Positions 2,925 to 27,672 of a DNA stretch of 64,000 nucleotides are shown piece by piece. How positions within the stretch are numbered: the first letter of the stretch is position 1; each line of letters begins with the position of its first letter. The translations under genes and the position numbers were made by a program. Source of the stretch: Patescibacteria group bacterium (GTDB taxonomy: Bacteria; Patescibacteriota; Patescibacteriia; JAQUQO01); contig JAQUQO010000001.1 in assembly GCA_028716045.1 (NCBI GenBank), forward strand, positions 64,942 to 128,941, in the 5' to 3' direction. A model generated the notes under the pieces. That model had not been told where the DNA came from. It ran no database searches and saw nothing but the letters and a program-made list of their open reading frames with translations.

Positions 2925-4034
2925 TTATCTCGCCAAAATATAATTCATGCCGCCTAAATTTTTAACCTTGCCCTTCATCTCCATCAGCGTCAGGGCGCTG
3001 GCCGTTTCCGCGGCGTTCAGTTTAGTTTCTCGCACCAGCTCGTCAATATGTTTCGGTTCTTTGGAAAGATAAAGCAACAGTTTTTCTTCAGAGGGATTAT
3101 CAGCAAGAATTTTTTGGTTGGCGGTAAATATCTCCGAGTTTTCCAGATTTAATGTTTCTAAAATATCCTCGGCGGAAGTTACGGCCCGCGCCCCCATTTT
3201 TATTAAATTATTGGGTCCGATGGAGGTTTTACTGTAGATATTGCCCGGCACGGCAAAGACCTCGCGGTTTTGTTCCAGGGCACAGCGGGCGGTGATGAGC
3301 GCGCCGGATTCTTCGCCCGCTTCCACAATAAGCGTTCCCAGAGAAAGCCCGGCGATAATTCTGTTTCTCGCGGGGAAGTGGTGCTTCAGGGGCGGGGTGC
3401 CGATGGGGTGTTCAGAAATTATCGCTCCTCCCTCGGCAATGATTTTTTCCGCCAGACAGCGATTGGCCACCGGATAAACGCTGTTTTTATCAGCCCCGCT
3501 TCCGAGAACCGCCAAAGTTTTACCGCGGTTATTAAGGGCAGCAAGATGCGCCAAGGCATCAACACCCAAAGCCAGCCCGCTGATGACGGTAATTTTATTT
3601 TGCGCCAGCCGCGCGGCAATTTCCTCCGTCACCTGTCGGCCGTAAGGCGAAATTTTTCTCGTGCCGACAACGGCAATGGTAAAGTCGTTGTTGATATCGT
3701 GGAGCGAGCCGCGATAATACAACAAATACGGGGCGTTGTATATTTCCTTGAGCAGTTTGGGATATCCGGCATCTTTGATGGTGATAATTTTCAGGTTCTC
3801 TTCTTCTACTTTTTGCCATTCTCTATCCGGCTCTATCTCTTGGCGTTTAATGATGAATTCTTCGGCAATGTTTTCTTCCAGCCCCGCTTTTTTTAGTTCC
3901 GAAAAAGAAGCCCGCCACGCACCGGCTATGTCGGGGAAATAATTTAATAATTTATTAAATCGGACCGGACCGATTTTGGGGAATTGAGTAAGAGCTACCC
4001 AATAAGAAAGTTCATTTGCCATTTTCTTTAACAA
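2925..4034 (-). CDS. dprA: DNA processing protein DprA/Smf
   Basis: GTRKISPYGRQVTEEIAARLAQNKITVISGLALGVDALAHLAAL...AVLGSGAD is a Rossmann-like DprA core. It is followed by a C-terminal winged-helix-like tail. Confidence 0.9.
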   Translation of the reverse strand: MLKKMANELSYWVALTQFPKIGPVRFNKLLNYFPDIAGAWRASFSELKKAGLEENIAEEFIIKRQEIEPDREWQKVEEENLKIITIKDAGYPKLLKEIYNAPYLLYYRGSLHDINNDFTIAVVGTRKISPYGRQVTEEIAARLAQNKITVISGLALGVDALAHLAALNNRGKTLAVLGSGADKNSVYPVANRCLAEKIIAEGGAIISEHPIGTPPLKHHFPARNRIIAGLSLGTLIVEAGEESGALITARCALEQNREVFAVPGNIYSKTSIGPNNLIKMGARAVTSAEDILETLNLENSEIFTANQKILADNPSEEKLLLYLSKEPKHIDELVRETKLNAAETASALTLMEMKGKVKNLGGMNYILAR

Positions 4035-4413: not shown

Positions 4414-6183
4414 ATGAGCGACGAAAAGAAGAATGGGAATGGGGACACGGATGGTAAAGAGGGCGAAACTCCAAAGAAGCCAGGTACAAGTTCAATGCGG
4501 CTCGGCGAATTGCTGGTGCGGGAAAATCTTATTTCAGCGCAGCAATTGCAAAGGGCGATTGAGGCCCAGCGGGTTGAGGGTGGAAGGTTAAATTTCCACC
4601 TTACCAAGTTGGGGCTGATTGATGAAAAGCAGTTAACCGGGTTTCTTGCTAAGCAGTATCGTATTCCGGCGGTTGATTTGCGGAAGATTGAAATCTCTCC
4701 CGAAATCATTAAGCTCATCCCTAAAGAGCTCGCCGAGAAGCATATGGTTATCGCCATAACACGCAACGAGCAGACGTTAATGCTCGCGATGAGCGACCCG
4801 TCAAACATCTTTGCCATTGACGACGTCAAGTTTATCACCGACTACAATATTGAAGCGGTGGTGGCGTCGGAAGAGGCGATTCTGGAGGCAATTGATAAGT
4901 ATTATGGGAAAGGTGAAGAAAAAGAAAAATTTTTGGGACCGCCCGTATTTGAAAAGCCGGGCCCCGAGGATATAGCAAGGGTAAACGAGGAAATGGCCAA
5001 TGACGCACCGGTGGTAAAACTGGTTAACTTGATTCTTCTTGACGCCATTAAGAAGGCAGCAACGGAGATTTATCTTGCTTACGCAAAAGCTGGCGGTTTT
5101 TCCGTAGAGTATTGTATTAACGGCGAGAAAAACCAGGCGATGATTCCGCCCCAAAAGTTACAGCCGGCTATTTTCGCCCGTCTGAAAATAATGGCCGGAC
5201 TGGATATTAGTAAGGTCGGGATTCTCCAAATAGGCACAATAGAGTTAAAGTTTAACGATGATGCCGACGCTTTCGTATTTTACCTTTGTGTTTTGCCCGA
5301 TGGAGGAGAAAGGAAAGAAGAAATTACCATCTTTTTGCGAGGTAAAAAAACGGGAACCGCTGCGATAGAGAGAAACTTTTGTAGGCAGTTTAGGAAACCC
5401 ACTGGCATACCCAACAAAGAAAATAAAGAGCCGCTGAAGTATGTTTTGCGGTTTATCGCCGGCAAATACAAGGGCGGCAGTTTTCCGCTCGAAGCGGATA
5501 AGGAGATTATACTCGGCCGTTCAGCTGACTGCGATGTAGCTCTTGTGGAGGATATGGTCAGTAAAAGACATGCTCGCATTACCTGTGGAAAAAACGAATT
5601 CTATATCCAAGATTTAGGCACCACCAATGGCACTTTTGTCAATGGAGAACGGGTACAAAAAAAGAAACTCGTTGTTGGCGATAGAATAACGATTGGGGCC
5701 AGTGTTTTAAAAATGACGGCGGGTGAAGCTGCGAGTCCTCCCGATTTCTCCGACATTAAGCCGGAAATGAATGAATTAATGGAAAAGTTTAAGCCGCAGG
5801 AAGTATCGGGAAAACAGAAAGTAGCGGAGAAAAAGAAAAGGGAGCAAAGCAAAAAACCGCCGAAATATATTCTTACCGTTACAGCTGGTCCATATCAGGG
5901 GGGAGAACGCCCGCTTGACCTCAAGGAGGGAGAAGCTCTAATAATCGGCCATTCAAGCGAAATGGATATAGCGCTTCCGAGAGACGATGAGGTTAGTCAG
6001 AAACACGCTCGCATCACTCGCGAAAACGGGAAATACTATATTGCCGATCTTTACTCCGAAAGCGGTACTTATGTGAATAAAAAGCGGCTGAATCCGGTTG
6101 AGAAAAAGGCAATCGGCCCCGGCGATATTATCAAAATCGGGACTAACGAATTTCGGCTGGATAAGGGAAAAAAGAAAAAGTAG
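4414..6183 (+). CDS. PilB/GspE N-terminal (MshEN-like + N2) domain protein fused to two FHA domains; no ATPase core
   Basis: Residues about 28-165 match the T2SS-E N-terminal domain (RLGELLVRENLISAQQLQRAIEAQ ... LGLIDEKQLTGFLAKQY ... MSDPSNIFAIDDVKF). Residues about 190-275 match the PilB N2 domain (DAPVVKLVNLILLDAIKKAATEIY...IFARLKIMAGLDIS). No Walker A/B is present. Two FHA-like segments follow (GRSADCDVALVEDMVSKRHARI...TNGTFVNGERV and GHSSEMDIALPRDDEVSQKHARI...SGTYVNKKRL). Confidence 0.75.
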   Translation: MSDEKKNGNGDTDGKEGETPKKPGTSSMRLGELLVRENLISAQQLQRAIEAQRVEGGRLNFHLTKLGLIDEKQLTGFLAKQYRIPAVDLRKIEISPEIIKLIPKELAEKHMVIAITRNEQTLMLAMSDPSNIFAIDDVKFITDYNIEAVVASEEAILEAIDKYYGKGEEKEKFLGPPVFEKPGPEDIARVNEEMANDAPVVKLVNLILLDAIKKAATEIYLAYAKAGGFSVEYCINGEKNQAMIPPQKLQPAIFARLKIMAGLDISKVGILQIGTIELKFNDDADAFVFYLCVLPDGGERKEEITIFLRGKKTGTAAIERNFCRQFRKPTGIPNKENKEPLKYVLRFIAGKYKGGSFPLEADKEIILGRSADCDVALVEDMVSKRHARITCGKNEFYIQDLGTTNGTFVNGERVQKKKLVVGDRITIGASVLKMTAGEAASPPDFSDIKPEMNELMEKFKPQEVSGKQKVAEKKKREQSKKPPKYILTVTAGPYQGGERPLDLKEGEALIIGHSSEMDIALPRDDEVSQKHARITRENGKYYIADLYSESGTYVNKKRLNPVEKKAIGPGDIIKIGTNEFRLDKGKKKK

Positions 6184-13089: not shown

Positions 13090-14844
13090 ATGCTTGTCAA
13101 AAAAAAGTTATTTTTAGAGATAACTGTCCTAACGGTATTTTTTGTCGTGACGGTTATTTTTTTATTTCCCTATTTTGTCCAAGCGCAAGTTGACACAGGA
13201 CTGGGTTATTTAGAAAGTTCCGGTTTGGCAGTTACCGATATCAGAATAACCATCGCGCGGATTATCCGTATCGCTCTCGGGCTTTTAGGGGCGATCGCCA
13301 CGGTGATAATTTTATATGGCGGATTTCTTTGGATGACCGCCGCCGGCAATGAGGAAAAAATGGAGACCGCCAAAAAAATTTTAAAGAACGGGGCTATTGG
13401 ACTGGCGATAATTATTACTTCTTTTTCCATCGCCAGTTTTGTTTTAAATTCACTTCTTAGGGCCACGGGCGTTACGGTCGGGGGCGGGGAGACGCCGGCA
13501 ACGGGCGCGGGCGGCGGGGGTTTGGGGTTTGGCATTATCCAAAGCCATTATCCGGCCCGCAATGCCAAAGAGATACCTCGCAACACAAAAGTTGTCGTTA
13601 CTTTCAAAGAATCAATCAAGGCAGATACTCTTATTAAAGACGGGGCTGATGAAGGCGAAATCCCTGGAGATTCACTTTCTGATCGTCTGATTACCACCAG
13701 CGTGCGTATTATTAAAAAAGGCGACTCCTTTCAAACGGGACCGTTTGTAGAGGCCTCGGCCATGGCAACAAGCGATAATAAAACTTTTGTTTTTAAGCCC
13801 TTGGATCTTTTGGGCAGTTCCTCTGTTTCTACTGATTATATCGTTCTTCTTTCTAATGACATCAAGAAAGCGGATGGCAAAAATGCTTTTAGCGGCGCCG
13901 ACCGGTGTGAAAATAATTCGGGGGTATATTGTTGGGGGTTTACCGTGAGCACTTTTGTTGATATCACCCCACCCCAAGTGGTAAATGTTTTTCCGGCAAA
14001 CGATTCCGAGGGCAAAAATCCGGTAGCGCGGAACGCCGTAGCGCAGATAAATTTTTCCGAACCAATTGACCCTTTGTCCGCCGCTGGCGTCTTTCCTCCC
14101 TTTGAGAATATTAGCGTAAAGGAAAATGGGGTGGCAAAAGAGGGTGGATATAATATAGGCAATGAGTACCAAGCAGTGGAATTTATTCCCAATGTTCTTT
14201 GCGGGCAGAATTCCTGCGGGCAAGATGTTTTTTGTCTGCCGCCCAACGCTCAATTAACAGCTTTGGCCAAATCAATTGACCCGGAAAAAGTGAGTTTCCC
14301 GTACGGGGGAGTGGTTGATATGTGTGACAACCCCTTGGATGGCGACGGCGACGGGGCGGTTGATAAAAAAGAAGGAGATAATTATCCGGATAATTATTCC
14401 TGGTCTTTTGCTACCAGCGATGAGGTTGATTTAACCTCGCCAGCCGTAGAAAAAATAATTCATCAAAATAAAGATAATACCGGAGAATTCATCTCTCCGC
14501 CGGATGGCGTGAGCGATATTTTGGATAATATTAATAAAACAGAACCCATAGAAATATATTTCAGTAAAGCGATGATGGTTAGTTTAATAAATAATTCTAA
14601 CGTGGTCATCGAGCCGCAGGACGCTAAGTGGTATGGCTGGTTTTACCCGATTTCTAAAAATGAAAGCGTGGAAGTTGATGGCCGAACGTTAAGGAAAACG
14701 CGGACCAGCTTAAAACACGATATCTTTTTTGAATCCAGCGGTTATTGGCCGAGTATTTCTTCACAGCTTAAAGATGTTTACCAAAATTGTCTTTGGGACT
14801 CGGCGAACAAGAAGGTCCCCGGTCCGGAGATAGTGACGCCGTAA
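13090..14844 (+). CDS. Membrane-anchored extracellular protein with N-terminal VirB2/TrbC-type pilin-like two-helix domain and Ig-like region
   Basis: After a signal/TM comes GLGYLESSGL...IRIALGLLGAIATVIILYGGFLWMTAAGNEEKMETAKKILKNGAIGLAIIITSFSIASFVL (helix-loop-helix, res about 36-122), then a Gly linker and beta-rich domains. The N-domain is paralogous to that of the next gene. Confidence 0.65.
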   Translation: MLVKKKLFLEITVLTVFFVVTVIFLFPYFVQAQVDTGLGYLESSGLAVTDIRITIARIIRIALGLLGAIATVIILYGGFLWMTAAGNEEKMETAKKILKNGAIGLAIIITSFSIASFVLNSLLRATGVTVGGGETPATGAGGGGLGFGIIQSHYPARNAKEIPRNTKVVVTFKESIKADTLIKDGADEGEIPGDSLSDRLITTSVRIIKKGDSFQTGPFVEASAMATSDNKTFVFKPLDLLGSSSVSTDYIVLLSNDIKKADGKNAFSGADRCENNSGVYCWGFTVSTFVDITPPQVVNVFPANDSEGKNPVARNAVAQINFSEPIDPLSAAGVFPPFENISVKENGVAKEGGYNIGNEYQAVEFIPNVLCGQNSCGQDVFCLPPNAQLTALAKSIDPEKVSFPYGGVVDMCDNPLDGDGDGAVDKKEGDNYPDNYSWSFATSDEVDLTSPAVEKIIHQNKDNTGEFISPPDGVSDILDNINKTEPIEIYFSKAMMVSLINNSNVVIEPQDAKWYGWFYPISKNESVEVDGRTLRKTRTSLKHDIFFESSGYWPSISSQLKDVYQNCLWDSANKKVPGPEIVTP

Positions 14845-14871: not shown

Positions 14872-17800
14872 ATGAAATCGCGAAAGCTAACAATTAAAAT
14901 TTTATTGGCCGCAAGTTTATTGCTGGCAATTTTCTTTTTAGGGAAACCCGTTTTGGCCCAAGTGGACGCTGGTTTGGGTTATTTGGAACAGTCGGGGCTG
15001 GGGACGGCTGATATCAGGGTGACTATTGCCAATATCATCCGCATAATTTTGGGATTTTTAGGCACTCTGGCGGTAGTGATTGTTTTAATTGGAGGTTTCA
15101 AATGGATGACCGCCGCCGGCAATGAGGAAAAGCTGGCCGGGGCTAAGAAGTTGCTTCTTAACGGAGCTATTGGTTTAGTTATTGTGCTATTTTCTTTTGG
15201 TATTGCCAGTTTCGTAATTTCCAGATTGATGCAGGCGACTGGCGGGGGAGGAGGCGGCGTTGTCGGTGGCGAAGTCCCCGGCGGCGGGGTTTTTTATCCC
15301 AACAATTTAGTAGTGAAAAGTATTACTCCGCAGGGGCCGGTGCCCATTCGCAATGTTAAGGTCAGAGTAATCTTTAACAAAGAAATAAAACCGGAGAGTG
15401 TGACGGGGAAAATAGAAGTAAGGAGGGCGAATGATGATTCTGAAGCAGCCGGCAATTTTGATATTGGCTCCCGGTCGGTGGAATTTTCGCCGTCAGCGGC
15501 TTGCCCCGAGCCTAATCAAAATTTAAAATGTTTTGATTCCAATACTGAATATCGGGTTGAGATTAAAGAAGGGGTCAAAAGTGCTGATGATAAAGATTTA
15601 AAATGCGGCGGCGCTTATCCTAAGTGCAATGGATTTTTTACCACTGGCGATTTAGTTGATGTCACTCCGCCCACGGGGGTAATCACCAACCCCGATGACG
15701 GAGGAAGCTTTAGTGTGGACGATTCAGTTCTGCTTCAGGCGGCAACCAAAGATGACAGCGGTATCGGCCTCGTGGAATTTTATGTTGACGGCCGTTTGAT
15801 TGATAGCGACGGGCCGGAGGGGCCGACGGCGTCAACTTATCTTGCCGAAGGATATTGGGAAACGGCGGGCGTGGAGCTTCTGTCCAGACATGAAATTTAT
15901 GCTCAGGTTTTTGATATTAACGACCACAAAACAAATACGGATAAAATTTACGCTCTCGCCCGGGCCAAACACTGTTTTAACGGGATTAAAGATGAAAAAG
16001 AAGAGGGCGTGGATTGCGGCGGAGAGCGCGAGGCCAAAGATTATTGCGGCGCCTGCGCCGGTGGTGATTGCGACCGCGCGGACAAAGACGCCGGGACCTG
16101 TGCCGCGCCAGACAATACTTTTTGCGCTTCGGGATATTGTGAATCAACAACCTGTAAATGTCAGATTCACCTGAAAATATCTAATATCTACTCCGGAGAT
16201 AAAAATGATTTTGCCGGCCTGAACCCCAATGGTTCGCCGGGCAATTATTTAACTATTAAAGGAGAAGGTTTCGGGCGTTCCTTGGGGCAAGTGATTTTTT
16301 TAGGCAGCGACCTTTCTTCGGACGATAAAATAGCCGCGCTCGCGTCTTGCAGTTCTGCTTGGCAAGATAAGCAGGTAGTAGTGGAAATTCCGGCCGGCGT
16401 GGTCGATGGATCAATTAAATTAATTACTGGCAATAAAGCCGAGGACAGCACGGATGACGCCTATGGGCCGATTATCAATGATTTCCAGTTAAATGACAGT
16501 AAACGTCCTGGCATCTGCGAAGTTTCTCCGCGCGAAGGAGTGGAGGGCGGCGATTTGAATATCAGCGGCAAAGGATTCGGCGACCAAGCAGGCGCTTTAT
16601 ATTTCGGCTCGGAAATTTTGAAAAAAATAAACAGCTGGCAAGACGGTAAGATTTCCTCGGTCATTCCCAATTTTAATTTAGGGGATTACTTAGTTTTAAT
16701 AAAAGCCGGAGAAGAATTTAGCAACGGCGTCAATTTTTCTTTAATTGAGGGCAAAAGTGTCGGGCCGCATGTTGATTATCTAAATCCGGAAAAAGGGAGA
16801 AAGGGCCAATATGTTACCATTGTCGGTTCGCGTTTTGGCAGTGGCCAAGGAACAGTCAATTTTATCAACCGGGCCAAAGGCAATGCTATTTTAGCCAGTA
16901 CTGATTTTCCGGCAGCTTGCCAGAGCAGCTGGTGGCGCGATAATTACGTGATTGTCCGCGTTCCGGAGATTGGTGATGGAACTTACGACCTAGTTTTAAC
17001 CACCGCCAAAAATCGCGACAGCAATCCCGTTCCCTTTGAAGTGACTGGCGATCCTTTAACGCCCGGCATTTGTAATTTGAATCCTGATAATGGGCTAGTG
17101 AATACCAAGGTTAATATCAGCGGCGGGGGATTTGCTTCATTAGGCAGTGAGAGCCGAATTGATTTCTGGCAAAATAAAAAAGCCGAAGCGGTTTCCTGGA
17201 GTGATGACAAGATATTTACCACCGTCCCCCCGGATACCCAGACCGGTCCGGTGTTTGTGACAAGCAATGAAAAAAAAGACGGGGCTAACCTCGTAAGCAA
17301 TCGTATTCCTTTTCGAGTAGGCGCGTGCGAAAAAGATTCTTGCTTGGAGGGGGAAACTTGTTGCGGCGACGGTATTTGCCGCGGAACTTGTTTTGATGAA
17401 ATCAGTAAAGCCAAATATCGCTGGTATTTTAATACCGGAGAATTGCCGAAAATTCCTCAAGTGGTGGAAGAGTGCGCGGCTAATTCCGCGCCCAGTCCTG
17501 TGCCCTTTTCCAAATTTGGCAATACCGACGTTTGTCTTAATGTGATTCCCTCGGCTCGTTTCAGCGTGCCGATGCAATACGAAACTTTAATTAAAGAAAA
17601 TATTCTTTTTGAGGAATGCGCCACCGGAGCGGAGGGGAAGATGATTTGTATTCCGGTGGAGGATTATTCCATAGCGATTTCCAGTTCTAAGGATTCCGAA
17701 TCAGGAAAAGACAGATTTGAGATTTACCCTGGCGGCAAAGGTTCGGGCGTTAATTTAAAATCTAATACTTCTTACAGGGTGGTTCTAACCACGGCTTTAC

Positions 17801-20800
17801 GCGGAGCGGACACGGAGGGAAAGACCGGCGCCAATATGATTGCCAATGTGGAAGAATGCGGTCAGGGCAATGCTTATTGTTGGGGATTTAAAACCGGCGA
17901 CAAGCTTTGCGATATCGGGGATATCAATGTTCTCCCGTCACCTAACACCCTAAGAAGCGCCGACGCGCAGAGCGATTATGAGGTTGTGGTTCGTGCTAAG
18001 GATAATTCTTGCTGGGGAATAAATCCGTTCGCTTACGACTGGTGGTGGATAATTGCCGACCCGTCTAAGGCCGATGTCACTAACGCAGAGTTGGATGGTA
18101 AGGGTCTGCCGGAGCAGATAGTCACGGCTAAAAATGAAACCCTGCCGGACAGACCTACGCAAGTTATGGCCGATACTGAAGACAAACTCGGCGACGGGGA
18201 GTTGCACATCAATTACGCTTTTCCGGCGGTCATTAATCATTCGCCCGCGTGCCAAAACGGAATTTGCTCCAACGCGGAGATTTCCGCCACTTTCAATGTC
18301 CAATTGGAAAATTATGAAGACAATATTCTGCTTTATAAATGCGCTGAAGAGAGCTGTAAATATTTAAGCGAAATTCCGGTGGCTTATACGTCGGAAAAAA
18401 TCGCCAAGACGGGCGGGGAGGAAGTAAATGAAAAAATTACGCTGACCATTCTCGGTGAAAATGAGTTTTTAGAGAAAGATACCTGGTATCGCGTGCAAGT
18501 TAAGGGCGGGGATAACGGCGTCAAATCAAAGGGCGGCGAGCGCAGTTTAATCGGCGGAAATGATGGCGCTGATTATTCTTGGAAGTTTCAAACGCGCGAT
18601 AACGATAAAATTTGCGACGTGGAACAAGTTGAAGTGTTTCCGAGAAAAACCACTTTATATTACATCGGGCAGAGAAAAGAATTGACGAGTTCCGTGTCGG
18701 GTCCGGAAGACGCTTGCGGCAATGGGCAAAGTTTAGCGGTCAGAACAAATAACCCCGACACCGGCGCCAGCTTGGATAATTATAATTGGCAATGGGAAAG
18801 TAGCGTGCCGAATTTAGTGACTCTCACGGGCAGCGCTCTCGGCAGAGTGGCGCCATGGGACGGTGAATTAATTGATGCTAATCCCATAATTGGCGGGGCG
18901 TGTTCTTCAAAATGCCTGCGCGTTGGTTCTAAAACCGGCGGAGCGATTTGCGGCAATGGGGTTTGGGAAAAAGGCGAAGATTGCGATGGCGGAGGGGGGT
19001 GTTCGGCAAAATGTCTTAGCGCCGGTTCAGTCAGTCCGGCGGTTTGCGGCGACGGCTATATCGGCGCTCCCGATAAAAAATACGAATATAAAAATTATCT
19101 GACTGACCTAAGAGCCGGGAGGTTACCCGCTGATTTTAAATCTTTCGGCGAGGAGTGCGACGATGGCAAACATTGCGCCAATGGGGCTTATTGCAGTAGC
19201 GACACTGAATGCGAGTTGGTAATGAGGGGGTTCTGCGGCACGCCCGCCAATTTTGAGTTATGCAAAGATAATAATTGGGCCACTTTTGATAAAGACGGCA
19301 AAAAATTAGAATCCATATTGGATAAAAAATGTCAGCCTCGTTCCAGTGATAGTTGCAGTGGGCAGTGTCTAAATGAAGGAGCGGCTTTTGAATTGGGTAC
19401 CTGCGGCAATGGGCAAATCGGCGGAGGAGAAGATTGTGACGATGGCAATCGCCAGCCGGGCGACGGTTGCAGCGCGGCTTGTCTTAATGAAGGGTCAGCG
19501 GCAGGGGCGGCGGTTTGCCAAAATGCGATAGTCGAAAGCAAGTGGGAAGATTGCGACGAGGGCGCTGGAAATAATCCCGCCGCCGGTTGCAGTAATAGCT
19601 GTTTAAACGAAGGGTCAAGGGTTACTCCTTGCGCTTATTTTTTTGATAAAATTGTTTGCGGCCGGCAAGGATATTGTCAGTGGGACGAGATGAGTGAAGA
19701 TGACCCCAGCGATGACCTTTGCGTTTATAATAATGTTTGTGAAAGTAAAACCGAAATTAAGTGCCTTGGCCTTGAGGCTTGTCGTTGGGTAGATAACGAA
19801 TGTCATAAGGCCATCTGCGGAGATGGCGCGGTAGATATCAGCGAGGATTGCGATGATGGCAATTTAAGAGCTGGCGACGGTTGTAGCGCAAAGTGCGTTA
19901 AAGAGGGGGCATCTTTAACTTATACCAATGCTTCGGTCTGCGGCGATGGAGAAATCAAGACGGGTGAAGAATGCGATTCCGGCAGTGGCGACGGCAAGAA
20001 AGACCCGTATCAGGCGGTGACGGCCATTGATTCTACTCCTACGTCGGCGATTATTAAGGCCAGCGTGAATAATGCGGCGGGGAAGAAAATTTCTTGCGAT
20101 GGTGAAGGATGCGCCGAAGTAGAAGTGGTTTGCGTTTGTAGCGATGATGATTATTGTGAAGGATATTCCGAGAATTTGGCCTGCAATCAGGTGAATCGCT
20201 GCTGTTATCCGCGGCCGACCATAGTCGCGGTAAAACCAGCTCACGATAACGACCCCGAAGAGCCAAATGCCTGTCCCAATGGAGTTTTAGAAGTAGAGTT
20301 TGACCAACAAATGGACTTGGCGAGCCTGGCTGAAAATATTAAATTATATCATTTACAATTAAATACTCCCTGCAATCAAGAAGCTTTGTCTTGGCATGAG
20401 AAACTTGGCAAGTGGGCGAAAAACATGTTTGCCAAAATAGGTCTGGCGGCCGTTCCGGAATACTGGTGTCCGGTGGCGGGAGCGGTGCGAACCGTCACTT
20501 TGGATAACGGGGGCAATAAAATAAATAAAGCGGAGTTTGTTCCTAACGATATTTTAGATGTTAATAATACTTATCGTCTGTTTGTAAAAATAGACAATGA
20601 GACCACTGCCGCCATTACCGAAGGCGTGCGCAGTTTGACTGGAGGGGTGGGGGTTAAAGAAGTAGACGCCGCGGGCGGCAACACACATTTTAAAATAGAT
20701 GAAAGCACCGGCAGAATGGAAGAAAGTTCCGGCAATTTTGACCGTTATTTCTTCGCGCATTTTGTCACCGGTATGGAGATTTGCCAGGTGGAGCAGGTTG

Positions 20801-23800
20801 TTTTTAAACGGCCGGCAGAGGGAGGTAAAGTAATTGACCCTTATATTTTTAGAAGAGCTGCTGACGAAGAAATTTTTGAAGTGGAGGCACAAACGGAGAA
20901 CGGTCAACCCTTGCGGCCCTTTCCCGAATATCATTGGTCATGGAGTTGGCAGCCAGGTGAGACCGGTTTAGTTAAAGTTTCCAGCCAAGACAAATATTGC
21001 AGCATCACCAAAAAGGATTGTTCTGATAAAGAAGTCGGCACTCAATGTTCTGTCGCGGACGGCATTTGTGTTTTAAGTGATATCCAAACGATAACGCCGG
21101 AAAATAACAGCGGAGATACGACACTCACGGTGACCGCCGAGATACTGAACGATGAATTAAATAAACCCGCGACTAAAGGAGAGAAAGTGGAAGGAGTTAT
21201 TGATATCAAGAATCGTATTTGCGAGAATTTGTGGTCATCAGCGCAGAACGATGAATATAAATGGCTGGAGGCCTCAACGTATCTTTTCGAATCAGACCTT
21301 TTAAAAATATCACCCATTTCTGGTAATTTTTCCACTTGGTATTGCCGCGATGCTGGTAATCCGGATAAAACCGAAGATGACTTACCGGATTTAAATATAA
21401 TTACAGTGGCCGAAGAAGGGACTGGTATCAGAGAATATTTGTTCAAAGACCCCTCCACTCCCGCCGCGGTTGGCTTTAGAATTTTACCCAATCTTAAACA
21501 TTTATCGCTTTTAAATTGGTATAAAGAGCAAGAAGGATTAAGCGGCAATCCGCAGACGATGGGGACCATTGACGGGTATTCAGCTCTTCGCGACGGCAAC
21601 ACTGTTTATATTAATTTTGCCAACAACAGTACCAAATGTTTTAACGCGGACTCTTGTTTTATTGACGCTATCTATACCAACGTGCTGGCGGTCTCCTTTA
21701 CTGAAACCGGCGGACAAAACATCCAAAATATCTTCAATCAGTTGGTTAAATATCTAAAATTTAATGAAAGTTTTTATCCGCATGGTCCCGGAAGCTCCAG
21801 CCGCTCCTTTTATTCCAATAATGCCATTGCCAATGCCGCCAAAGCTCAACTACTTCGCGATACGCGGCGCTGGGAGGATTTGACTGATATTGCCGCCACC
21901 TTGAATAATTACGCCGAGAATCATAGCGGCCAATATCCAAAAATTGAGGCCGGTTCTTTCCTCCCTGGTTTAACAATCAGCGCTTGGCCGTCTTGGAACA
22001 CGGTTTTGGGCAATAATTTAGGCATGGCTTTGCCCGAAGACCCTAAGAATGAATTTTCCGCTGACTGTTCGGAAGGAACTTTTCTTGATGAGCCGTTTAA
22101 TGCCGCCACTTGCTGGTCAAGCAAAGGAGCTTTCTATTGTCCCCAAAATTCTCATATCTATTGGTATAACCATCGCGCTGATGGGCAATATAATTTGGCG
22201 GGAGAATTTGAATTTAATGCTAACGAGGAAACAGCGGAGTATTTGTGGAGGTTAGACAGCGCAAAACAGAATTATCAGTTGTTAAGAAATATCTATATCA
22301 CCGTTTCTTCTGACGCGGCCGGAGGACCGTCCTGCAATTCCACACCCGCCAGTCCGATAAAGGGCGTTTGCGGTGACGGTTATATTGATTTAAATGAGGT
22401 TTGCGATGGTGCGGGTTATTTTGAAATCAAAGATAATAATAATTACCCTTGCCGCGCTTATTATACTTGTAAGTCGGATTGCTCGGCTAAAATATATAAG
22501 GATTCTTCCGGCAAGGAAGTGGAAATAAAAACATCGTCCGAGGAAACAAATTTAGCAGCGTCCATTTGCCAGTATGTTGGCAGGTGCGGCGACGGAATTG
22601 TCAGTGGTCCCGAAACCTGTGATGATGGTGTGGAACGCAATGGGCAGTATGGTCGTTGCCCGAAAAGTTGCCGGCAGTCTGATGCCGTTAAATGCGGTGA
22701 TTATAATATTGATAAACCATTTGAAGTTTGTGATAAGGGAGGCAAGACAGAATATGGCGGTACTAAGAGAGAAAATTCTTGTCGTTGGGATTGTTTGGCC
22801 TATGGCCCGTATTGCGGCGACAAAGTGGTGGAGGAAGAATATGGGGAAGTTTGTGAATTAGGGGAGATAGTGACTCCACAGGAAAATTGTCCAATAGTTG
22901 ATGGTTATCAGCAATTTAAAAAATATCAATGTAGTTCTGATTGCCAGAAATGGAACTTAGTTGCCGATTGTTCTTCTCTCGGACAGCAGTGCGGCAATAA
23001 AATAAAAGAAGGTACTGAAGAATGCGATGACGGTAAAAATACGGGAGATAAGGATCAAAACGGCATTCCCGATGGTAATGAAGACGCTTGTAATAATGAT
23101 TGTAAATTAACTGTTTGCGGGGACAGTAAAATTCAAAATCCCAATGGGCTGGGGCAGAAAGAAGAATGTGATTTGGGGGCGGGAGTCAATGGGGTGAGTT
23201 GTCGAGAAAAATTGCCTTATAGTGAAGGAATAAATGAAGCTCCGCAACAATGCACTTATTGCGATGCCAATTGCCGGAGCGTGCGCGTCCAGGGCCCATA
23301 TTGCGGTGACGGAATAATAGATGTCGGCCACGAAGAGTGCGACGGCAATAATAATCTGGAATATTGCGAGGACGGAATCAGGGTAAGAAAGCTGACTTGC
23401 AATAATTCCTGCGATTGGGATAAGGGCAAAGAGTGCGAATACGTCGGTGAAGGAGAAAGCTGCACAGTTGGCGGCGGAGACGAGCAGGTTTGCGATGCCG
23501 GAATGGGTTGTGTGAATGGCAAATGCCAGAAATGTTTTGATAATAATGGTCGGGTTAAACCGGAATGTCAAGCGGTCAGCGGTTTTATTAAACCCTTTGA
23601 TTATTGCACTAACAATTCTCAATGTTTGCAGGCCTATGATTTGAGTTGGAAATGCTCGTCCGCGCTTAAACTTTGCTTGCCGGAAACTATAATAACTGCC
23701 GGTCTTTATGGGAAGTCCTGCCCGGGCGGTTTAACCCAACATGGAGGTCTTTGCTATTATCGGGCTTCAAATAATCAAGTCACGGACGGCAAATGCCCGA

Positions 23801-25203
23801 CATTAAATATGGACTTGCTGTTAAACCGAGGAATAAAGCAATTGGAATTTGAAAAATTTAAAGGCCTAGCCAACAATCCAATAACTGGAAATTTTGTTTT
23901 ATGCGTTTTTGACGCTGAAAATTATAAGAAGAATATTTGTAGCAGTTCCGCTTGCGGTGGCGATTGCGGGCATGCGGATAATAGTTGGTCGGATTTTTGC
24001 CCGTCAGCTAGACCAAACAGCGACCAACCGAATGAACAATGTTCGGGTGGTTCCTGTAATCAACAGTCGGGGAGTATCTTGGGTAAATTTAGCTGTCGTT
24101 ATACAGATACTTGTGGCAATTCGTGTTTGCTGACGGGGTTTGGTTGTTGCAATGGTTCTGTCTATGATTTAGGGGTGGAAAAATGCGAAAATAATCAAAT
24201 ACTTTGTCAGGAAACAGGCAGTGGTCAGACAGACAATGTGCCACCGGAAGATAAAATGGATTCTTGCTATAATAAATGTTGCGATAACGATGAGTATTGC
24301 TCTTCTGCCACTCAATCTTGCGTGGAATGTGAGAAAGACAACCATTGCAGTGATAATGATAAAGATAAGTTTTGTGTTAATTATGAATGTGTGGAATGTC
24401 GGGAGAATGCTAATTGTATCGGCGGAAAAATTTGTTTAAATAATCAATGTGCCGACGCGCCACAGTGCCAGGTTGACAGTGATTGTAAGGTAATGGGGGC
24501 AAATGCAAAATGTGTTAATAAAAAATGTGGGTGCTCCTCCAGCTGTTCAGGCAAGCAGTGCGGTGATGACGGTTGTGGCGGGGATTGCGGAGAGTGTCGG
24601 GAGAGCTGGAGTTGTAGCGGTAATACGTCAGTACACAAAACATCGTCTTGTAAGAATAATCAATGTACAGAAGAGCGGATTGATTGTAGTAATAAGGGTG
24701 GATGCGATTCAGCGACTGGTAAATGTAAGGGTTGCACATCGGTGGAGCATACTTCCAAAAACGCCGTTAAATATACTAAATGTTTTGATGGTGACGCTTG
24801 GTGGGTGGATGGTTGCGGTCAAAAAGATGGTCTTTATGAAAATTGCAGTGATGTAGAGATTTGTGAGAAGAATGAGGCCGAGCCGGCGGGATGTGAGTGT
24901 AAATACGGAGATTGTACTTCAAATGTTTGTGTTCCTCGACCGGGCCTAGAACTTTGTGTGGAAGGAACATGTACTTATCTTCGCGAGTGTGTTTATGGTT
25001 GTTTTACGGAACCGCGGCAATGCGATAACGTTTGTTATGGCGGCGAATGCGTTGAGTGCAATCCGAAAGGCACCTCTTGCCATAATACGACGTCAACGGA
25101 CGGGGCTTGTAATGGAAGAATATGCGAGATTTTAGGATGTCAAAAACATTGGGTTTGTAATACTGCCGGTAAAAAAGTTTATGAGTGTGGTAGTTGTCCA
25201 TAA
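14872..25203 (+). CDS. Giant (3443 aa) secreted cysteine-rich adhesin-like protein with N-terminal pilin-like anchor, IPT/TIG repeats and Myxococcus-type Cys-rich repeats
   Basis: It is a single uninterrupted 10.3-kb ORF. The N-terminal domain is paralogous to 13090 (…LIGGFKWMTAAGNEEKLAGAKKLLLNGAIGL…). There are at least 4 IPT/TIG-like repeats (…GNYLTIKGEGFG…, PGICEVSPREGVEGGDLNISGKGFG…). Repeats of CG(D/N)G..x..E(E/D)CDDGN...GDGCS..C follow across about 18.9-20.2 kb. The C-terminal 900 aa are packed with CxxC/EGF- or follistatin-like cysteine knots. Confidence 0.8.
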   Translation: MKSRKLTIKILLAASLLLAIFFLGKPVLAQVDAGLGYLEQSGLGTADIRVTIANIIRIILGFLGTLAVVIVLIGGFKWMTAAGNEEKLAGAKKLLLNGAIGLVIVLFSFGIASFVISRLMQATGGGGGGVVGGEVPGGGVFYPNNLVVKSITPQGPVPIRNVKVRVIFNKEIKPESVTGKIEVRRANDDSEAAGNFDIGSRSVEFSPSAACPEPNQNLKCFDSNTEYRVEIKEGVKSADDKDLKCGGAYPKCNGFFTTGDLVDVTPPTGVITNPDDGGSFSVDDSVLLQAATKDDSGIGLVEFYVDGRLIDSDGPEGPTASTYLAEGYWETAGVELLSRHEIYAQVFDINDHKTNTDKIYALARAKHCFNGIKDEKEEGVDCGGEREAKDYCGACAGGDCDRADKDAGTCAAPDNTFCASGYCESTTCKCQIHLKISNIYSGDKNDFAGLNPNGSPGNYLTIKGEGFGRSLGQVIFLGSDLSSDDKIAALASCSSAWQDKQVVVEIPAGVVDGSIKLITGNKAEDSTDDAYGPIINDFQLNDSKRPGICEVSPREGVEGGDLNISGKGFGDQAGALYFGSEILKKINSWQDGKISSVIPNFNLGDYLVLIKAGEEFSNGVNFSLIEGKSVGPHVDYLNPEKGRKGQYVTIVGSRFGSGQGTVNFINRAKGNAILASTDFPAACQSSWWRDNYVIVRVPEIGDGTYDLVLTTAKNRDSNPVPFEVTGDPLTPGICNLNPDNGLVNTKVNISGGGFASLGSESRIDFWQNKKAEAVSWSDDKIFTTVPPDTQTGPVFVTSNEKKDGANLVSNRIPFRVGACEKDSCLEGETCCGDGICRGTCFDEISKAKYRWYFNTGELPKIPQVVEECAANSAPSPVPFSKFGNTDVCLNVIPSARFSVPMQYETLIKENILFEECATGAEGKMICIPVEDYSIAISSSKDSESGKDRFEIYPGGKGSGVNLKSNTSYRVVLTTALRGADTEGKTGANMIANVEECGQGNAYCWGFKTGDKLCDIGDINVLPSPNTLRSADAQSDYEVVVRAKDNSCWGINPFAYDWWWIIADPSKADVTNAELDGKGLPEQIVTAKNETLPDRPTQVMADTEDKLGDGELHINYAFPAVINHSPACQNGICSNAEISATFNVQLENYEDNILLYKCAEESCKYLSEIPVAYTSEKIAKTGGEEVNEKITLTILGENEFLEKDTWYRVQVKGGDNGVKSKGGERSLIGGNDGADYSWKFQTRDNDKICDVEQVEVFPRKTTLYYIGQRKELTSSVSGPEDACGNGQSLAVRTNNPDTGASLDNYNWQWESSVPNLVTLTGSALGRVAPWDGELIDANPIIGGACSSKCLRVGSKTGGAICGNGVWEKGEDCDGGGGCSAKCLSAGSVSPAVCGDGYIGAPDKKYEYKNYLTDLRAGRLPADFKSFGEECDDGKHCANGAYCSSDTECELVMRGFCGTPANFELCKDNNWATFDKDGKKLESILDKKCQPRSSDSCSGQCLNEGAAFELGTCGNGQIGGGEDCDDGNRQPGDGCSAACLNEGSAAGAAVCQNAIVESKWEDCDEGAGNNPAAGCSNSCLNEGSRVTPCAYFFDKIVCGRQGYCQWDEMSEDDPSDDLCVYNNVCESKTEIKCLGLEACRWVDNECHKAICGDGAVDISEDCDDGNLRAGDGCSAKCVKEGASLTYTNASVCGDGEIKTGEECDSGSGDGKKDPYQAVTAIDSTPTSAIIKASVNNAAGKKISCDGEGCAEVEVVCVCSDDDYCEGYSENLACNQVNRCCYPRPTIVAVKPAHDNDPEEPNACPNGVLEVEFDQQMDLASLAENIKLYHLQLNTPCNQEALSWHEKLGKWAKNMFAKIGLAAVPEYWCPVAGAVRTVTLDNGGNKINKAEFVPNDILDVNNTYRLFVKIDNETTAAITEGVRSLTGGVGVKEVDAAGGNTHFKIDESTGRMEESSGNFDRYFFAHFVTGMEICQVEQVVFKRPAEGGKVIDPYIFRRAADEEIFEVEAQTENGQPLRPFPEYHWSWSWQPGETGLVKVSSQDKYCSITKKDCSDKEVGTQCSVADGICVLSDIQTITPENNSGDTTLTVTAEILNDELNKPATKGEKVEGVIDIKNRICENLWSSAQNDEYKWLEASTYLFESDLLKISPISGNFSTWYCRDAGNPDKTEDDLPDLNIITVAEEGTGIREYLFKDPSTPAAVGFRILPNLKHLSLLNWYKEQEGLSGNPQTMGTIDGYSALRDGNTVYINFANNSTKCFNADSCFIDAIYTNVLAVSFTETGGQNIQNIFNQLVKYLKFNESFYPHGPGSSSRSFYSNNAIANAAKAQLLRDTRRWEDLTDIAATLNNYAENHSGQYPKIEAGSFLPGLTISAWPSWNTVLGNNLGMALPEDPKNEFSADCSEGTFLDEPFNAATCWSSKGAFYCPQNSHIYWYNHRADGQYNLAGEFEFNANEETAEYLWRLDSAKQNYQLLRNIYITVSSDAAGGPSCNSTPASPIKGVCGDGYIDLNEVCDGAGYFEIKDNNNYPCRAYYTCKSDCSAKIYKDSSGKEVEIKTSSEETNLAASICQYVGRCGDGIVSGPETCDDGVERNGQYGRCPKSCRQSDAVKCGDYNIDKPFEVCDKGGKTEYGGTKRENSCRWDCLAYGPYCGDKVVEEEYGEVCELGEIVTPQENCPIVDGYQQFKKYQCSSDCQKWNLVADCSSLGQQCGNKIKEGTEECDDGKNTGDKDQNGIPDGNEDACNNDCKLTVCGDSKIQNPNGLGQKEECDLGAGVNGVSCREKLPYSEGINEAPQQCTYCDANCRSVRVQGPYCGDGIIDVGHEECDGNNNLEYCEDGIRVRKLTCNNSCDWDKGKECEYVGEGESCTVGGGDEQVCDAGMGCVNGKCQKCFDNNGRVKPECQAVSGFIKPFDYCTNNSQCLQAYDLSWKCSSALKLCLPETIITAGLYGKSCPGGLTQHGGLCYYRASNNQVTDGKCPTLNMDLLLNRGIKQLEFEKFKGLANNPITGNFVLCVFDAENYKKNICSSSACGGDCGHADNSWSDFCPSARPNSDQPNEQCSGGSCNQQSGSILGKFSCRYTDTCGNSCLLTGFGCCNGSVYDLGVEKCENNQILCQETGSGQTDNVPPEDKMDSCYNKCCDNDEYCSSATQSCVECEKDNHCSDNDKDKFCVNYECVECRENANCIGGKICLNNQCADAPQCQVDSDCKVMGANAKCVNKKCGCSSSCSGKQCGDDGCGGDCGECRESWSCSGNTSVHKTSSCKNNQCTEERIDCSNKGGCDSATGKCKGCTSVEHTSKNAVKYTKCFDGDAWWVDGCGQKDGLYENCSDVEICEKNEAEPAGCECKYGDCTSNVCVPRPGLELCVEGTCTYLRECVYGCFTEPRQCDNVCYGGECVECNPKGTSCHNTTSTDGACNGRICEILGCQKHWVCNTAGKKVYECGSCP

Positions 25204-25216: not shown

Positions 25217-25906
25217 ATGTCATTATCAAAGCGAAAAATTTTGATGATTGGGCTGGCGGTAATAATAGTTTGCCTTGTTTTGCTAATGTTTTATAAGAGA
25301 GATAGAGAAAATGCTGATGTTTTGGACGAGGCAGAAATTCAGAACATATTATCGAATGAAGATATCGCATTGAAAGAATTAGTAGGTATTGATAAAGAAG
25401 CGGCCGAGCGATTGGCTATTATGTACAACAATGGCCAATCGGGGGCTAGAGATTCGGACGGAGACGGCATTACCGATGAAGATGAAAAAAATTACAGAGT
25501 TTTTACTGGTTCTATGGAGGACATACAAAAAGCCGGGCTAGATCCCCAAAATATCACGGAGAAGGATATTGAAAAACTAGATTCAGAATTATTTTTAGTA
25601 TTAAATCCGGAGAATAAAGATACGGATGGTGACGGGGCAAGCGATGGAGAAGAAATATTTAAATATTTTACGGACCCATGGGATCAGGATAGTGATGGCG
25701 ACGGTATCTTAGACGGAGAAGAAATTGCTAAATATAATACGTTGCCTAATAATCCTGACACCGACGGCGATATTTTATCGGATTATGACGAGATATTTAA
25801 GTATAAAACAGACCCTCTGAAAGCCGATACCGATGGTGACGGATTTCGCGATGATATGGAAATTAGTAATGGATTTAATCCCTCGGGGGAGGGGAAATTA
25901 GAATAA
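25217..25906 (+). CDS. Single-TM protein with thrombospondin type-3-like Ca-binding repeats (DTDGDG)
   Basis: An N-terminal TM helix, then repeated D-x-D-x-DG-x-x-D-x-x-E units (DSDGDGITDEDE, DTDGDGASDGEE, DSDGDGILDGEE, DTDGDILSDYDE, DTDGDGFRDDME). It ends NGFNPSGEGKLE. Confidence 0.7.
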   Translation: MSLSKRKILMIGLAVIIVCLVLLMFYKRDRENADVLDEAEIQNILSNEDIALKELVGIDKEAAERLAIMYNNGQSGARDSDGDGITDEDEKNYRVFTGSMEDIQKAGLDPQNITEKDIEKLDSELFLVLNPENKDTDGDGASDGEEIFKYFTDPWDQDSDGDGILDGEEIAKYNTLPNNPDTDGDILSDYDEIFKYKTDPLKADTDGDGFRDDMEISNGFNPSGEGKLE

Positions 25907-25944
25907 AAATATAACATACAATTTATTATTTAATTTTAATTCTT

Positions 25945-26649
25945 ATGTTTGAAGACAATAAAAACGCGTCCAGACCGGTTCCTCCCTCTAATCTGCCGAC
26001 TGGCGGCAAGGAACCAGAAGATATTTTGGCCGGAGTGGAGAAAACTCCGTCGGCGGCTTCTTTTGTCCCTCCTCCGCGTCCGGTCACTTCGTCATCCTTA
26101 AAAATGGGGGGTATTCCGACTCCGCCTCTCCCGGGACCCCAATTGCCAGAGAAAAAAAGTTCAGCCAAGATTTTTTGGTTGGTTATTATTATAATAATTT
26201 TAGTTGGCATGGGTTTTGGCGGGTGGTATTGGTATTCGCAATTAAGCGGCGGTTCGGAGGCGGAGATTCAGCTTGAGGAACAGCCGAGTGAAGAAACTTT
26301 TACCCCAGTTGAGAATATTGAAGAATTGAATATGGCGGAGGAAGAAACTCCGGCAGTAACGACTCCGGAAACTGGCAACGAAGAAACGACATTGCCTCCC
26401 GCGGAAGTTCCCGAGAATTTAGATACTGACGGCGATGGTTTAACCGATGAGGAAGAAATACAATTAGGCACAGACCCCAGCAAGGTTGATACTGATGGTG
26501 ATGATTTATTTGACCGTGAAGAGGCGAGAATATACAAGACGGACCCGCTTAACCCTGACACCGACGGCGATGGTTATTTAGACGGACAGGAAATTAAGTC
26601 CGGATATAATCCTAGGGGTGAGGGAAAATTATTAGAAATCAATCTGTAA
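25945..26649 (+). CDS. Paralogous TM protein with TSP3-like repeats and Pro-rich cytoplasmic N-tail
   Basis: A Pro-rich N-terminus, a TM helix, an acidic linker, DTDGDGLTDEEE / DTDGDDLFDREE / DTDGDGYLDGQE, and the C-terminus SGYNPRGEGKLLEINL. Confidence 0.7.
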   Translation: MFEDNKNASRPVPPSNLPTGGKEPEDILAGVEKTPSAASFVPPPRPVTSSSLKMGGIPTPPLPGPQLPEKKSSAKIFWLVIIIIILVGMGFGGWYWYSQLSGGSEAEIQLEEQPSEETFTPVENIEELNMAEEETPAVTTPETGNEETTLPPAEVPENLDTDGDGLTDEEEIQLGTDPSKVDTDGDDLFDREEARIYKTDPLNPDTDGDGYLDGQEIKSGYNPRGEGKLLEINL

Positions 26650-26685
26650 TAAAATGTTTAAACTTTAGGCAGTGAGGCAAGTTTT

Positions 26686-27672
26686 ATGGTTAATTTTAAT
26701 AATACGGAGAATAGACAAATAGAAAATACCCAGACAGTTGAGTCACCTCCGAGAGTGGGGGAGATTTATGTTATGCCCGAAAGATTTTATTTAAACCAAA
26801 GGGAAAAGGCGGGCAAAGGGTTAAAAATAGTTTTAATTGGGGGCGGAATTTTTATTGTTTGTGTGGTTGCCGCCGCCATTTTTGTTTTAAAGATGCCAGC
26901 GAGTGAAGCCCCGTTGCCGGTAGTTGAAAATGTGTTGCCAAAGGAAGAGATAGCGCCACCGCCGGAGGAAGTTAAGGTTGTTGAAGAAAAAAAAGAAGAA
27001 CCCGCTCCGTTAGCAGAAGAAATAACAGAGGAACCGGAAATTTCAAAAGAGGAAGAATCGTCACCCCCAGTCGTGACTTTGCCCAATATGCCGGCGGTTG
27101 GCCTAGATACCGACCGCGATAACTTTACCGATGCAGAGGAAACAATTTTTGGGACCGGTGTTAATTTACCAGATACCGACGAAGATGGTTATTTAGATGG
27201 TAATGAGGTAGCTAATTTATATAATCCCTTAGCTAAAGAAGGGATGCTTAAAGATTCTAATTTGGTTAAAATTTATAATAATTCGCAGTTTGGTTATAGT
27301 ATTTTTTACCCCTTAACCTGGGTGAGTAGAGTGATTGATAATACTGGTAAAGAAGTTATTTTTAATTCCGATACCGGAGAATTTATCCAGGTTATAGTTG
27401 AGGAAAATTCTTTGGGGCTTTCACCGCTTGATTGGTATCTGAATCAATCTCCGGGGATAGCCAAAGAGCAGATTCAGCCCGTTGAAACAAAAAATTTTTC
27501 CGGAGTATCAAGTTTAGACACGCTTACTGTTTATTTAGTGCCTAAAAATGGCGATGGGAAAAATATTTTTATTGTCACTTATAATATAGGGACGAAATCG
27601 GAAATGAGTTTTAAAACAATTTTCCAAATGATGGTAAATAGTTTTACTTTTAATCCAGGCGCTTCTTTATGA
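26686..27672 (+). CDS. Paralogous TM protein with TSP3-like repeats plus C-terminal beta-rich domain
   Basis: A TM helix, a Glu/Pro-rich linker, DTDRDNFTDAEE / DTDEDGYLDGNE, then NLYNPLAKEGMLKDSN and an about 130-aa extra C-terminal domain. Confidence 0.65.
   Translation: MVNFNNTENRQIENTQTVESPPRVGEIYVMPERFYLNQREKAGKGLKIVLIGGGIFIVCVVAAAIFVLKMPASEAPLPVVENVLPKEEIAPPPEEVKVVEEKKEEPAPLAEEITEEPEISKEEESSPPVVTLPNMPAVGLDTDRDNFTDAEETIFGTGVNLPDTDEDGYLDGNEVANLYNPLAKEGMLKDSNLVKIYNNSQFGYSIFYPLTWVSRVIDNTGKEVIFNSDTGEFIQVIVEENSLGLSPLDWYLNQSPGIAKEQIQPVETKNFSGVSSLDTLTVYLVPKNGDGKNIFIVTYNIGTKSEMSFKTIFQMMVNSFTFNPGASL

Follow-up and report, generated by a model that had tools for sequence, protein, structure and literature searches.

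Architecture of the giant protein

The DNA analysed here (hereafter the window) is a stretch of 64,000 nucleotides (nt) from a Patescibacteria group bacterium (assembly GCA_028716045.1, contig JAQUQO010000001.1, positions 64,942 to 128,941 of the forward strand), and our subject is a gene within it that encodes a predicted surface protein of 3443 amino acids (aa), together with the shorter paralog immediately upstream (Table 1). The giant gene reads as one ATG-to-stop frame of 3443 codons without interruption. Exactly the same protein is recorded under two NCBI accessions (MDD5043548.1 and MDD5490242.1, both annotated as 'Ig-like domain-containing protein', with a contig of 927,681 bp) and was recovered again from run SRR22315508 in a second, independent assembly (Logan), which makes a frameshift artefact unlikely. 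The single 10.3-kb open reading frame (ORF) described in an initial annotation of this DNA therefore stands, and the splitting by frameshifts that was considered there does not apply. The ultrasmall cell from which the gene derives probably belongs to the class ABY1 of the Patescibacteria (CPR).

An alignment of the N-terminal region, where the giant carries a membrane hairpin resembling that of the VirB2/TrbC proteins of type IV secretion systems (T4SSs), was used to search GTDB genomes, one for each species, for relatives. These are encoded at no fewer than 577 loci, and the 80 loci that were fetched contain 71 hairpin-bearing ORFs of at least 1300 aa, with which the giant is compared throughout. 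The labels attached to these loci include Uhrbacteria, Komeilibacteria, Falkowbacteria, Magasanikiibacteriota and Buchananbacteria, many labels being generic or evidently wrong.

Table 1. Positions of the giant gene, its parts and associated features, in nucleotides of the window unless another locus is named.
Feature	Position	Strand	Basis or remark
Upstream paralog (584 aa) with Big_5 domains behind the shared signal peptide and VirB2-like hairpin	13090–14844	+	27-nt gap to giant gene
Giant ORF, 3443 aa	14872–25203	+	MDD5043548.1
Putative Sec-type signal peptide, aa 1–29 (MKSRK...PVLA/QVD)	14872–14958	+	hydrophobic aa 4–30; predicted cleavage site
VirB2/TrbC-like two-helix hairpin (T4SS_pilin), aa 48–118, charged loop WMTAAGNEEKLAGAKK	15013–15225	+	PF18895
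Gly-rich linker, aa 123–146	15238–15309	+	read from sequence
Big_5 (aa 147–241) and Big_7 (aa 267–314), Ig-like	15310–15813	+	Pfam
Cys-rich insert, aa 367–431	15970–16164	+	sequence; matched in 71/71 related giants
Four IPT/TIG domains, aa 449–527, 546–598, 632–723, 731–804	16216–17283	+	Pfam and internal iterative profile
Small Cys knot (aa 818–842), then beta-rich stalk	17323–18948	+	kept in about 60/71 giants
Array 1, six Myxococcus-type (DUF4215/TIGR02232) units, 36 Cys	18949–20031	+	Pfam, NCBIfam, motif scan
Weak Big_5 start (aa 1781–1825) and unassigned beta-rich region	20212–21423	+	E 0.0069, below cut-off
Conserved unnamed module, aa ~2185–2460	21424–22251	+	HMMER relatives and AlphaFold2 model
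Array 2, seven degenerate CG(D/N)x units, aa 2500–2860, 36 Cys	22369–23451	+	motif scan, weak DUF4215
Lineage-specific C-terminal tail, aa 2861–3443, 583 aa, 80 Cys	23452–25200	+	no relatives among 80 loci
Three downstream membrane-anchored proteins	25217–27672	+	directly after giant; syntenic in 33–41/80 loci
Monoderm-type T4SS core	45911–54361	+	20.7 kb downstream of giant's stop
TrbL/VirB6-like, weak, sub-threshold	45911–48661	+	profile match
PrgI/VirB3-like	51330–51767	+	T4SS core
VirB4/TraG-type ATPase	52505–54361	+	T4SS core
Third VirB2-like hairpin, fused to SLT lytic transglycosylase (VirB2::VirB1-like)	62906–64000, past window end	-	T4SS_pilin 42.6 bits, SLT 28.1 bits
Split-giant loci	L044 11532–14891; L045 16794–20231; L056 12377–16525

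Hydropathy gives only three hydrophobic segments in the giant (aa 4–30, 48–75 and 88–120), and the roughly 3300 residues that follow the hairpin contain no other. The first would belong to the signal peptide, whose A-Q junction is kept in the alignment of the N-terminal region (A1), and the other two are the predicted transmembrane segments of the hairpin, separated by the charged loop KWMTAAGNEEKLAGAKK; the hairpin has invariant columns in A1 and the linker behind it, present as initially proposed, is conserved there as ATG-GGGG. The match to PF18895 (aa 48–115) scored 28.2 bits when the whole protein was searched and 32.1 bits with aa 1–400 alone, against a cut-off of 26.6, and NF045849 scored under its own cut-off on the same hairpin. 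An N-terminal anchor likened to a pilin had already been noted, and the PF18895 match and the transmembrane segments uphold it, although its type has to be corrected: as judged from its profile match, the anchor is a T4SS hairpin of the VirB2/TrbC type and not a type IV pilus pilin, and no class III prepilin motif (G-F-T-L-I-E type) occurs in any ORF of the window. The pilins of T4SSs measure about 70–130 aa when mature and polymerise into a pilus. The giant, at 3443 aa, falls outside this small-protein class, and the gene pair lies outside the virB4 cluster, virB4 starting 27 kb downstream of the giant's stop.

Beyond the linker lie Ig-like and other beta-rich regions, which we describe as the stalk of the protein. 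Pfam TIG (PF01833) matched four stretches with 60.6 bits, above the cut-off, in agreement with the at least four IPT/TIG folds previously placed at 16.15–17.3 kb, and the same part matches domain D of cyclodextrin glycosyltransferase (CGTase) in the Protein Data Bank (PDB) by sequence. Two additional Big_5 matches, at aa 883–983 (E 0.0018) and aa 1118–1241 (E 0.05), lie under the cut-off. The initial annotation had left aa 1776–2500 undescribed; this stretch comprises a weak Big_5 match and a widely conserved module without a name, and its first part (20212–21423) aligned end to end in three relatives (P0024, P0025 and P0031). Blastp detected no internal duplication in the giant, the only related match being the upstream paralog, and DNA-level tandem repeats are absent from the gene. 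A diversity-generating retroelement was considered and rejected, no long direct repeat touching the 3' end of the giant gene; a Pfam scan of the 41 larger ORFs of the window found no reverse transcriptase domain.

Cysteine makes up 6.3% of the giant (216 residues), which also contains 365 Gly. The units of array 1, of the CG(D/N)G...ECDDG type, begin at aa 1360, 1392, 1511, 1549, 1649 and 1690, bearing out an earlier count of at least six tandem Myxococcus-type repeats at about 18.9–20.2 kb; TIGR02232 scored 57.3 bits (cut-off 20.8) and PF13948 (DUF4215) 34–49 bits (cut-off 27). With the degenerate units of array 2, the motif scan gives 13 Myxococcus-type units in all. The tail beyond them appears to be put together from small disulfide modules, among them a single C.GK.CGDDGCGG.CG.C unit (aa 3225–3242). 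It was matched in none of the 71 giants, in no ORF of the 80 loci and nowhere else in the window, and proteins from outside the 80 loci reach it solely through the CGDDGCGG-type unit, which is repeated many-fold in Cys-rich metagenome proteins. Known proteins with Myxococcus-type (TIGR02232/DUF4215) or CGDDGCGG repeats consist mostly of such repeats, whereas in the giant, which has 13 Myxococcus-type units and shares one CGDDGCGG unit with P0013–P0018, the repeats form two inserts in an Ig-like stalk.

The Cys-rich C-terminus had also been compared with EGF, follistatin or Dickkopf modules. No such Pfam model matched in aa 2300–3443, whether at E <= 1 on overlapping pieces of 344–501 aa or at E <= 10 for aa 2330–2500 and 2860–3443, the sole Pfam match in aa 2300–3443 being the weak DUF4215 in array 2. 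For the tail itself (aa 2861–3443), neither Pfam at a threshold as loose as E <= 10 nor the PDB sequences returned a match, and the proposed resemblance is therefore unsupported; what holds is that the C-terminus is very Cys-rich, part of the stretch in question being array 2.

The conserved unnamed module carries the motifs IR.LPN..H.S...WY and RD..R..DL...YP...GS.L....S.WPSW...LP.DP.N. An exhaustive HMMER search with aa 1775–2520 retrieved 1308 representative proteins at E <= 1e-3, 204 of them at E <= 1e-30. Many are giants of 2000–4671 aa, and the two that were scanned, P0024 (3663 aa) and P0025 (3803 aa), contain the same five Pfam families as our giant; many others are proteins of 290–1100 aa in which the module comes straight after a signal peptide. 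A word-index homologue search with aa 1900–2520 (window 20569–22431) returned zero matches, which, in view of the 1308 HMMER relatives, is a false negative for a divergent family of low identity. The AlphaFold2 model of aa 2185–2500, built from a 26-sequence alignment (pLDDT 78, pTM 0.76), predicts a beta-rich subdomain, a 35-residue helix and a small sheet; a single-sequence prediction for aa 2100–2520 reached a pLDDT of 33. Neither Pfam nor PDB sequences yielded a relative of the module, and no Foldseek match to PDB structures was significant, the best fold hints, DcrB and EagT6, being weak (E about 0.03, query-normalised TM <= 0.21). A likeness of the RD..R..DL...YP stretch to the head of type IV pilins or pseudopilins, suspected for the second half of the module, proved unsupported: pilins are absent from the top 50 listed Foldseek matches, the profile has no PDB sequence match and prepilin motifs are lacking.

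The module lies inside 51 of the 71 giants, at a similar position, and at some loci it coincides with a break between genes. In L083 and L084, a 287-aa protein consisting of the module alone directly follows a giant of 2171 aa within the same synteny. In L044, L045 and L056 the giant stops within the module, and the next ORF (1120–1383 aa) opens with a signal peptide of its own, behind which the module's second half comes next. Recurring in three assemblies with intact export signals, this split looks like genuine gene fission and not a sequencing error. We suggest from this pattern that the module forms a junction, the distal part being able to exist as a secreted subunit of its own that docks onto the stalk.

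Conservation of the gene pair

The 584-aa paralog is 40% identical to the giant over giant aa 6–274 (blastp), the first 130 aa of the two proteins align with few substitutions, and its PF18895 score is 38.4 bits. A short gene (about 550–1000 aa) and a giant were both present in 63 of the 80 loci and were neighbours in 61, the remaining loci being mostly cut by contig ends. The surroundings are likewise shared: signal peptidase was found in 56 loci, HisRS in 60, YqeY in 47, proteins with TSP3 repeats in 33–41 and a 328-aa protein in 36, the order of the block being signal peptidase, HisRS, YqeY, short gene, giant, TSP3-repeat proteins, 328-aa protein, YbeY, DAGK, FtsA and FtsZ. On these sequence comparisons, the block is a vertically inherited core and not an island. 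Its housekeeping members are 50–60% identical between related species and the giants 26–35%. Downstream of HisRS there is a terminator-like hairpin and upstream of YqeY a promoter-like site (consensus matches only), which suggests a single transcription unit.

Nothing in these data points to the eukaryote-like origin that the domain mix had evoked; the architecture is that of a vertically inherited Patescibacteria family. The paralog, the conservation of the pair and its synteny, array 2 and the central module had all been overlooked in the initial annotation. Two of the three proteins encoded directly after the giant match the bacterial TSP3 (Ca-binding) repeat model. The ORFs at 26686–27672 and 36979–37863 (+) encode membrane-anchored proteins in which D.D.D-type motifs resembling Ca-binding ones are visible by eye, with no Pfam TSP3 match.

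Of the 71 giants, 56 have an intact 3' end and range from 1404 to 4064 aa (median about 3200), and some of the ORFs truncated by the end of a locus are longer than 4200 aa; these are stop-to-stop lengths, which slightly overstate the size of the proteins. When the giant was compared with all 71 by phmmer, conservation fell from the N- to the C-terminus: aa 1–1300 were matched in 60–71 relatives, aa 1300–2450 in about 16–52, aa 2500–2860 (array 2) in about 15–24 and aa 2900–3443 in none. The closest relative, L002, is collinear with giant aa 5–2859 at 31–35% identity and ends there. The C-termini of the other giants fall mostly into shared sub-families, 54 of 57 matching another. Since the anchor is N-terminal, the variable part would be the one farthest from the cell.

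Possible roles of the giant

Taking architecture, conservation pattern and genomic context together, we favour, with a probability of roughly 0.6, a Sec-exported surface fibre tethered by its hairpin, in which an Ig-like stalk, disulfide-rich arrays and a junction module would carry a lineage-specific tip that contacts a host, a partner or a surface. After Sec export and removal of the signal peptide, both helices would span the membrane, the charged loop lying inside and the entire C-terminal part outside the cell, as in VirB2. The conserved proximal 1300–2450 residues would then serve as spacer or stalk, disulfides would stabilise the distal Cys-rich parts, and the tip would touch the host cell, the partner cell or the surface; at the central module, split lineages would make the distal part as a secreted protein that presumably docks back on the stalk. 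The initial proposal of a host-attachment factor is thus kept in part. Adhesion or contact is plausible for a protein whose distal 583 aa are lineage-specific and whose proximal 1300 aa are kept in nearly all 71 relatives; attachment to a host stays a prediction, no binding domain of known specificity having been recognised in the giant. Essential components of cultivated Saccharibacteria include the T4SS and several predicted surface adhesins (PMC11665869).

Besides the lack of a recognisable binding domain, several considerations weigh against a contact fibre. Topology, signal-peptide cleavage and disulfides are all predictions from sequence, the picture of stalk and tip presupposes an extended conformation, and the uniqueness of the tail is defined against 80 species-level loci. 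Some Patescibacteria may be free-living. Deep conservation within a housekeeping block, by cell-division genes, would also fit a structural role in the envelope, where the giant, its 600-aa partner and the TSP3 neighbours would form a coat or spacer (an S-layer-like or wall-like scaffold) and not an attachment factor. Such a scaffold would suit a core, vertically inherited pair that shares its block with signal peptidase, an LCP-family protein (LytR_cpsA_psr), FtsA and FtsZ, the retention of the first 1300 residues across nearly all relatives, and the repeated Ca-binding motifs of the syntenic neighbours; Big_5 and TIG domains are, moreover, frequent in surface-layer-type proteins. We nevertheless hold it to be quite unlikely, since it leaves unexplained both the lineage-specific, replaceable distal tip and a length range from about 1400 to more than 4200 aa, and one anchor per 3443 aa would make a costly coat for a genome of about 0.9 Mb.

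The conserved sequence directly after helix 2 (A-T-G and the Gly-rich motif) raises the further question of whether the ectodomain stays attached. By analogy with the C-terminal processing of TrbC/VirB2 by signal-peptidase-like enzymes, the giant might be an effector or precursor whose hairpin acts in export or processing; it would be cut at the conserved L-x-A-T-G and its ectodomain released. A signal peptidase S26 gene does lie three genes upstream (the one syntenic in 56 of the 80 loci), and distal parts exist as separately secreted proteins in some lineages. However, the S26 gene could be plain housekeeping LepB, the cleavage site is speculative, and Pfam and NCBIfam scans found no enzymatic or toxin domain across the 3443 aa, so that we give release very little credence.

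For the tethered contact fibre, parallels include SiiE and the RTX adhesins, which likewise combine a very long, repetitive Ig-like stalk with a distal binding region and a role in cell contact, but which use type I export with C-terminal signals, the N-terminus being held in the outer membrane (PMC6272769). The giant differs from them in its putative Sec signal, VirB2-like hairpin and 216 Cys: it has no Pfam match of the RTX or type I secretion type, no LPXTG sorting signal and, at its C-terminus (...KKVYECGSCP), no hydrophobic segment. Surface proteins of several thousand residues that take up a large share of a small genome and are encoded by consecutive genes are described for Apilactobacillus kunkeei (Giant1-5; PMC12863079); their anchoring differs, and the likeness is one of description. 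Giant surface-associated proteins of ultrasmall, probably host-dependent bacteria are also described for the Omnitrophota (bioRxiv 10.1101/2023.11.21.568195); here again the comparison is by description, and both the phylum and the proposed function (cell-wall degradation) are different.

The hairpin itself invites comparison with secretion pili. In the same window, 20–30 kb downstream of the pair, lies a T4SS core with PrgI/VirB3-like and VirB4-type genes and a weak TrbL/VirB6-like match, followed by ComFC, RecG and RadA (61559–62899); a T4SS together with comF, recG and radA is the context reported for class ABY1 (PMC12102498). This T4SS might polymerise the hairpins of the 584-aa protein and the giant, the latter as a rare or terminal subunit displaying its ectodomain on a filament or its tip. 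The anchor is a bona fide PF18895 match, a local search with hidden Markov models detected no short stand-alone VirB2 gene in the window, and all three hairpins found there bear ectodomains, including the VirB1-like SLT domain of the fusion adjoining RadA. In conjugative pilins, both termini lie on the exterior of the filament, and F-pilin can display sequences fused to its C-terminus. VirB2-like gene arrays are widespread near virB4 in Patescibacteria (PMC12102498). Against a pilus-displayed adhesin, the pair is not beside virB4, a VirB4 or VirB6 homologue was found within 10 kb of the pair in 0 of the 80 loci, and an extension of 3300 residues per subunit would clash sterically with helical pilin packing; further, the Patescibacteria T4SS is of the monoderm MPF-FATA type, whose classical members are without VirB2 pilins (PMC12102498). 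We therefore regard display on a pilus as unlikely and retain the separately tethered fibre.

The VirB2-like genes surveyed in Patescibacteria (Quinonero-Coronel et al. 2025, PMC12102498) share with the pair the family PF18895, the phylum and the occurrence of divergent copies in tandem; that survey reports them from 1,948 assemblies, describes tandem arrays of 2–11 genes, and states that no adhesins were detected. In contrast to those pilins, the hairpin forms here the N-terminal 3% of 3443 aa, and the pair occupies a housekeeping block, separated by 20.7 kb from the VirB6-like gene and by 27 kb from virB4; a keyword search of the survey returned nothing on size, C-terminal or giant fusions. 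Given that all three hairpins of the window bear ectodomains, we suggest that the hairpin works as a modular anchor or assembly module. A preprint on the structure universe lists PF18895 as dominant in freshwater-specific structure clusters, which fits the presence of many different ectodomains on one hairpin. Counts of PF18895 'pilins' in surveys of Patescibacteria include very large ectodomain fusions and need to be reread accordingly.

Carried further, the hairpin could be a general module that, in this clade, sends ectodomains to the T4SS; the chromosomal T4SS would then assemble the giant, together with its 600-aa partner and the SLT fusion, into a filament or membrane platform bearing a multi-subunit adhesive fibre of more than 100 nm, distal parts docking through the split module. 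We put this forward as a speculation with the odds clearly against it. If true, it would amount to an attachment organelle derived from a conjugative pilus in bacteria with a monoderm-type T4SS, and would give a concrete structural role to the essential, functionally unexplained T4SS of the Patescibacteria.

Giant Ig-repeat adhesins, Myxococcus-type Cys-rich repeats and VirB2-like genes of Patescibacteria are each known separately, and the literature searched contained no description of this giant family or of their combination. That combination comprises a VirB2-type hairpin anchoring a protein of 2000–4000 aa, a shorter paralog, class-wide fixation in a housekeeping block, a junction module prone to splitting and a replaceable tip. 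It bears on host contact in uncultivated Patescibacteria other than the Saccharibacteria and on the role of VirB2-like 'pilins' and the T4SS, and it offers three leads: the class-wide syntenic pair supplies obvious candidates for a contact apparatus, specificity is predicted to lie in the lineage-specific Cys-rich tip, and the unnamed module, with its 1308 representative proteins, may act as a junction that can be split between two secreted proteins.

Other features of the window

A second giant ORF (37935–45842, +; 2635 aa, 113 Cys) lies directly upstream of the VirB6/TrbL-like gene. It has an N-terminal hydrophobic segment resembling a signal peptide and two carbohydrate-binding CBM_4_9 stretches, and is not homologous to the giant (blastp); a 30%-identical homologue is encoded just upstream of the short and giant genes in L073. 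Part of the interior of tRNA-Ser(GCT) recurs as an exact 41-nt copy at 55853–55893 (the original being 56257–56297, within the tRNA gene at 56226–56314). The copy is located about 400 nt upstream of the tRNA gene, just after ComFC, and may be an integration scar or a tRNA gene fragment.

A direct repeat of 114 nt (72–185 and 213–326, 78% identical) lies near the beginning of the window; by eye, it resembles repeated zinc-ribbon coding units in a gene on the minus strand that continues beyond the window. The 589-aa protein encoded at 4414–6183 (+) combines MshEN, only the N-terminal part of T2SSE (profile positions 2–90 of 370) and two FHA domains, a composition suggesting a regulator that descends from a pilus or secretion ATPase and has itself no ATPase activity.

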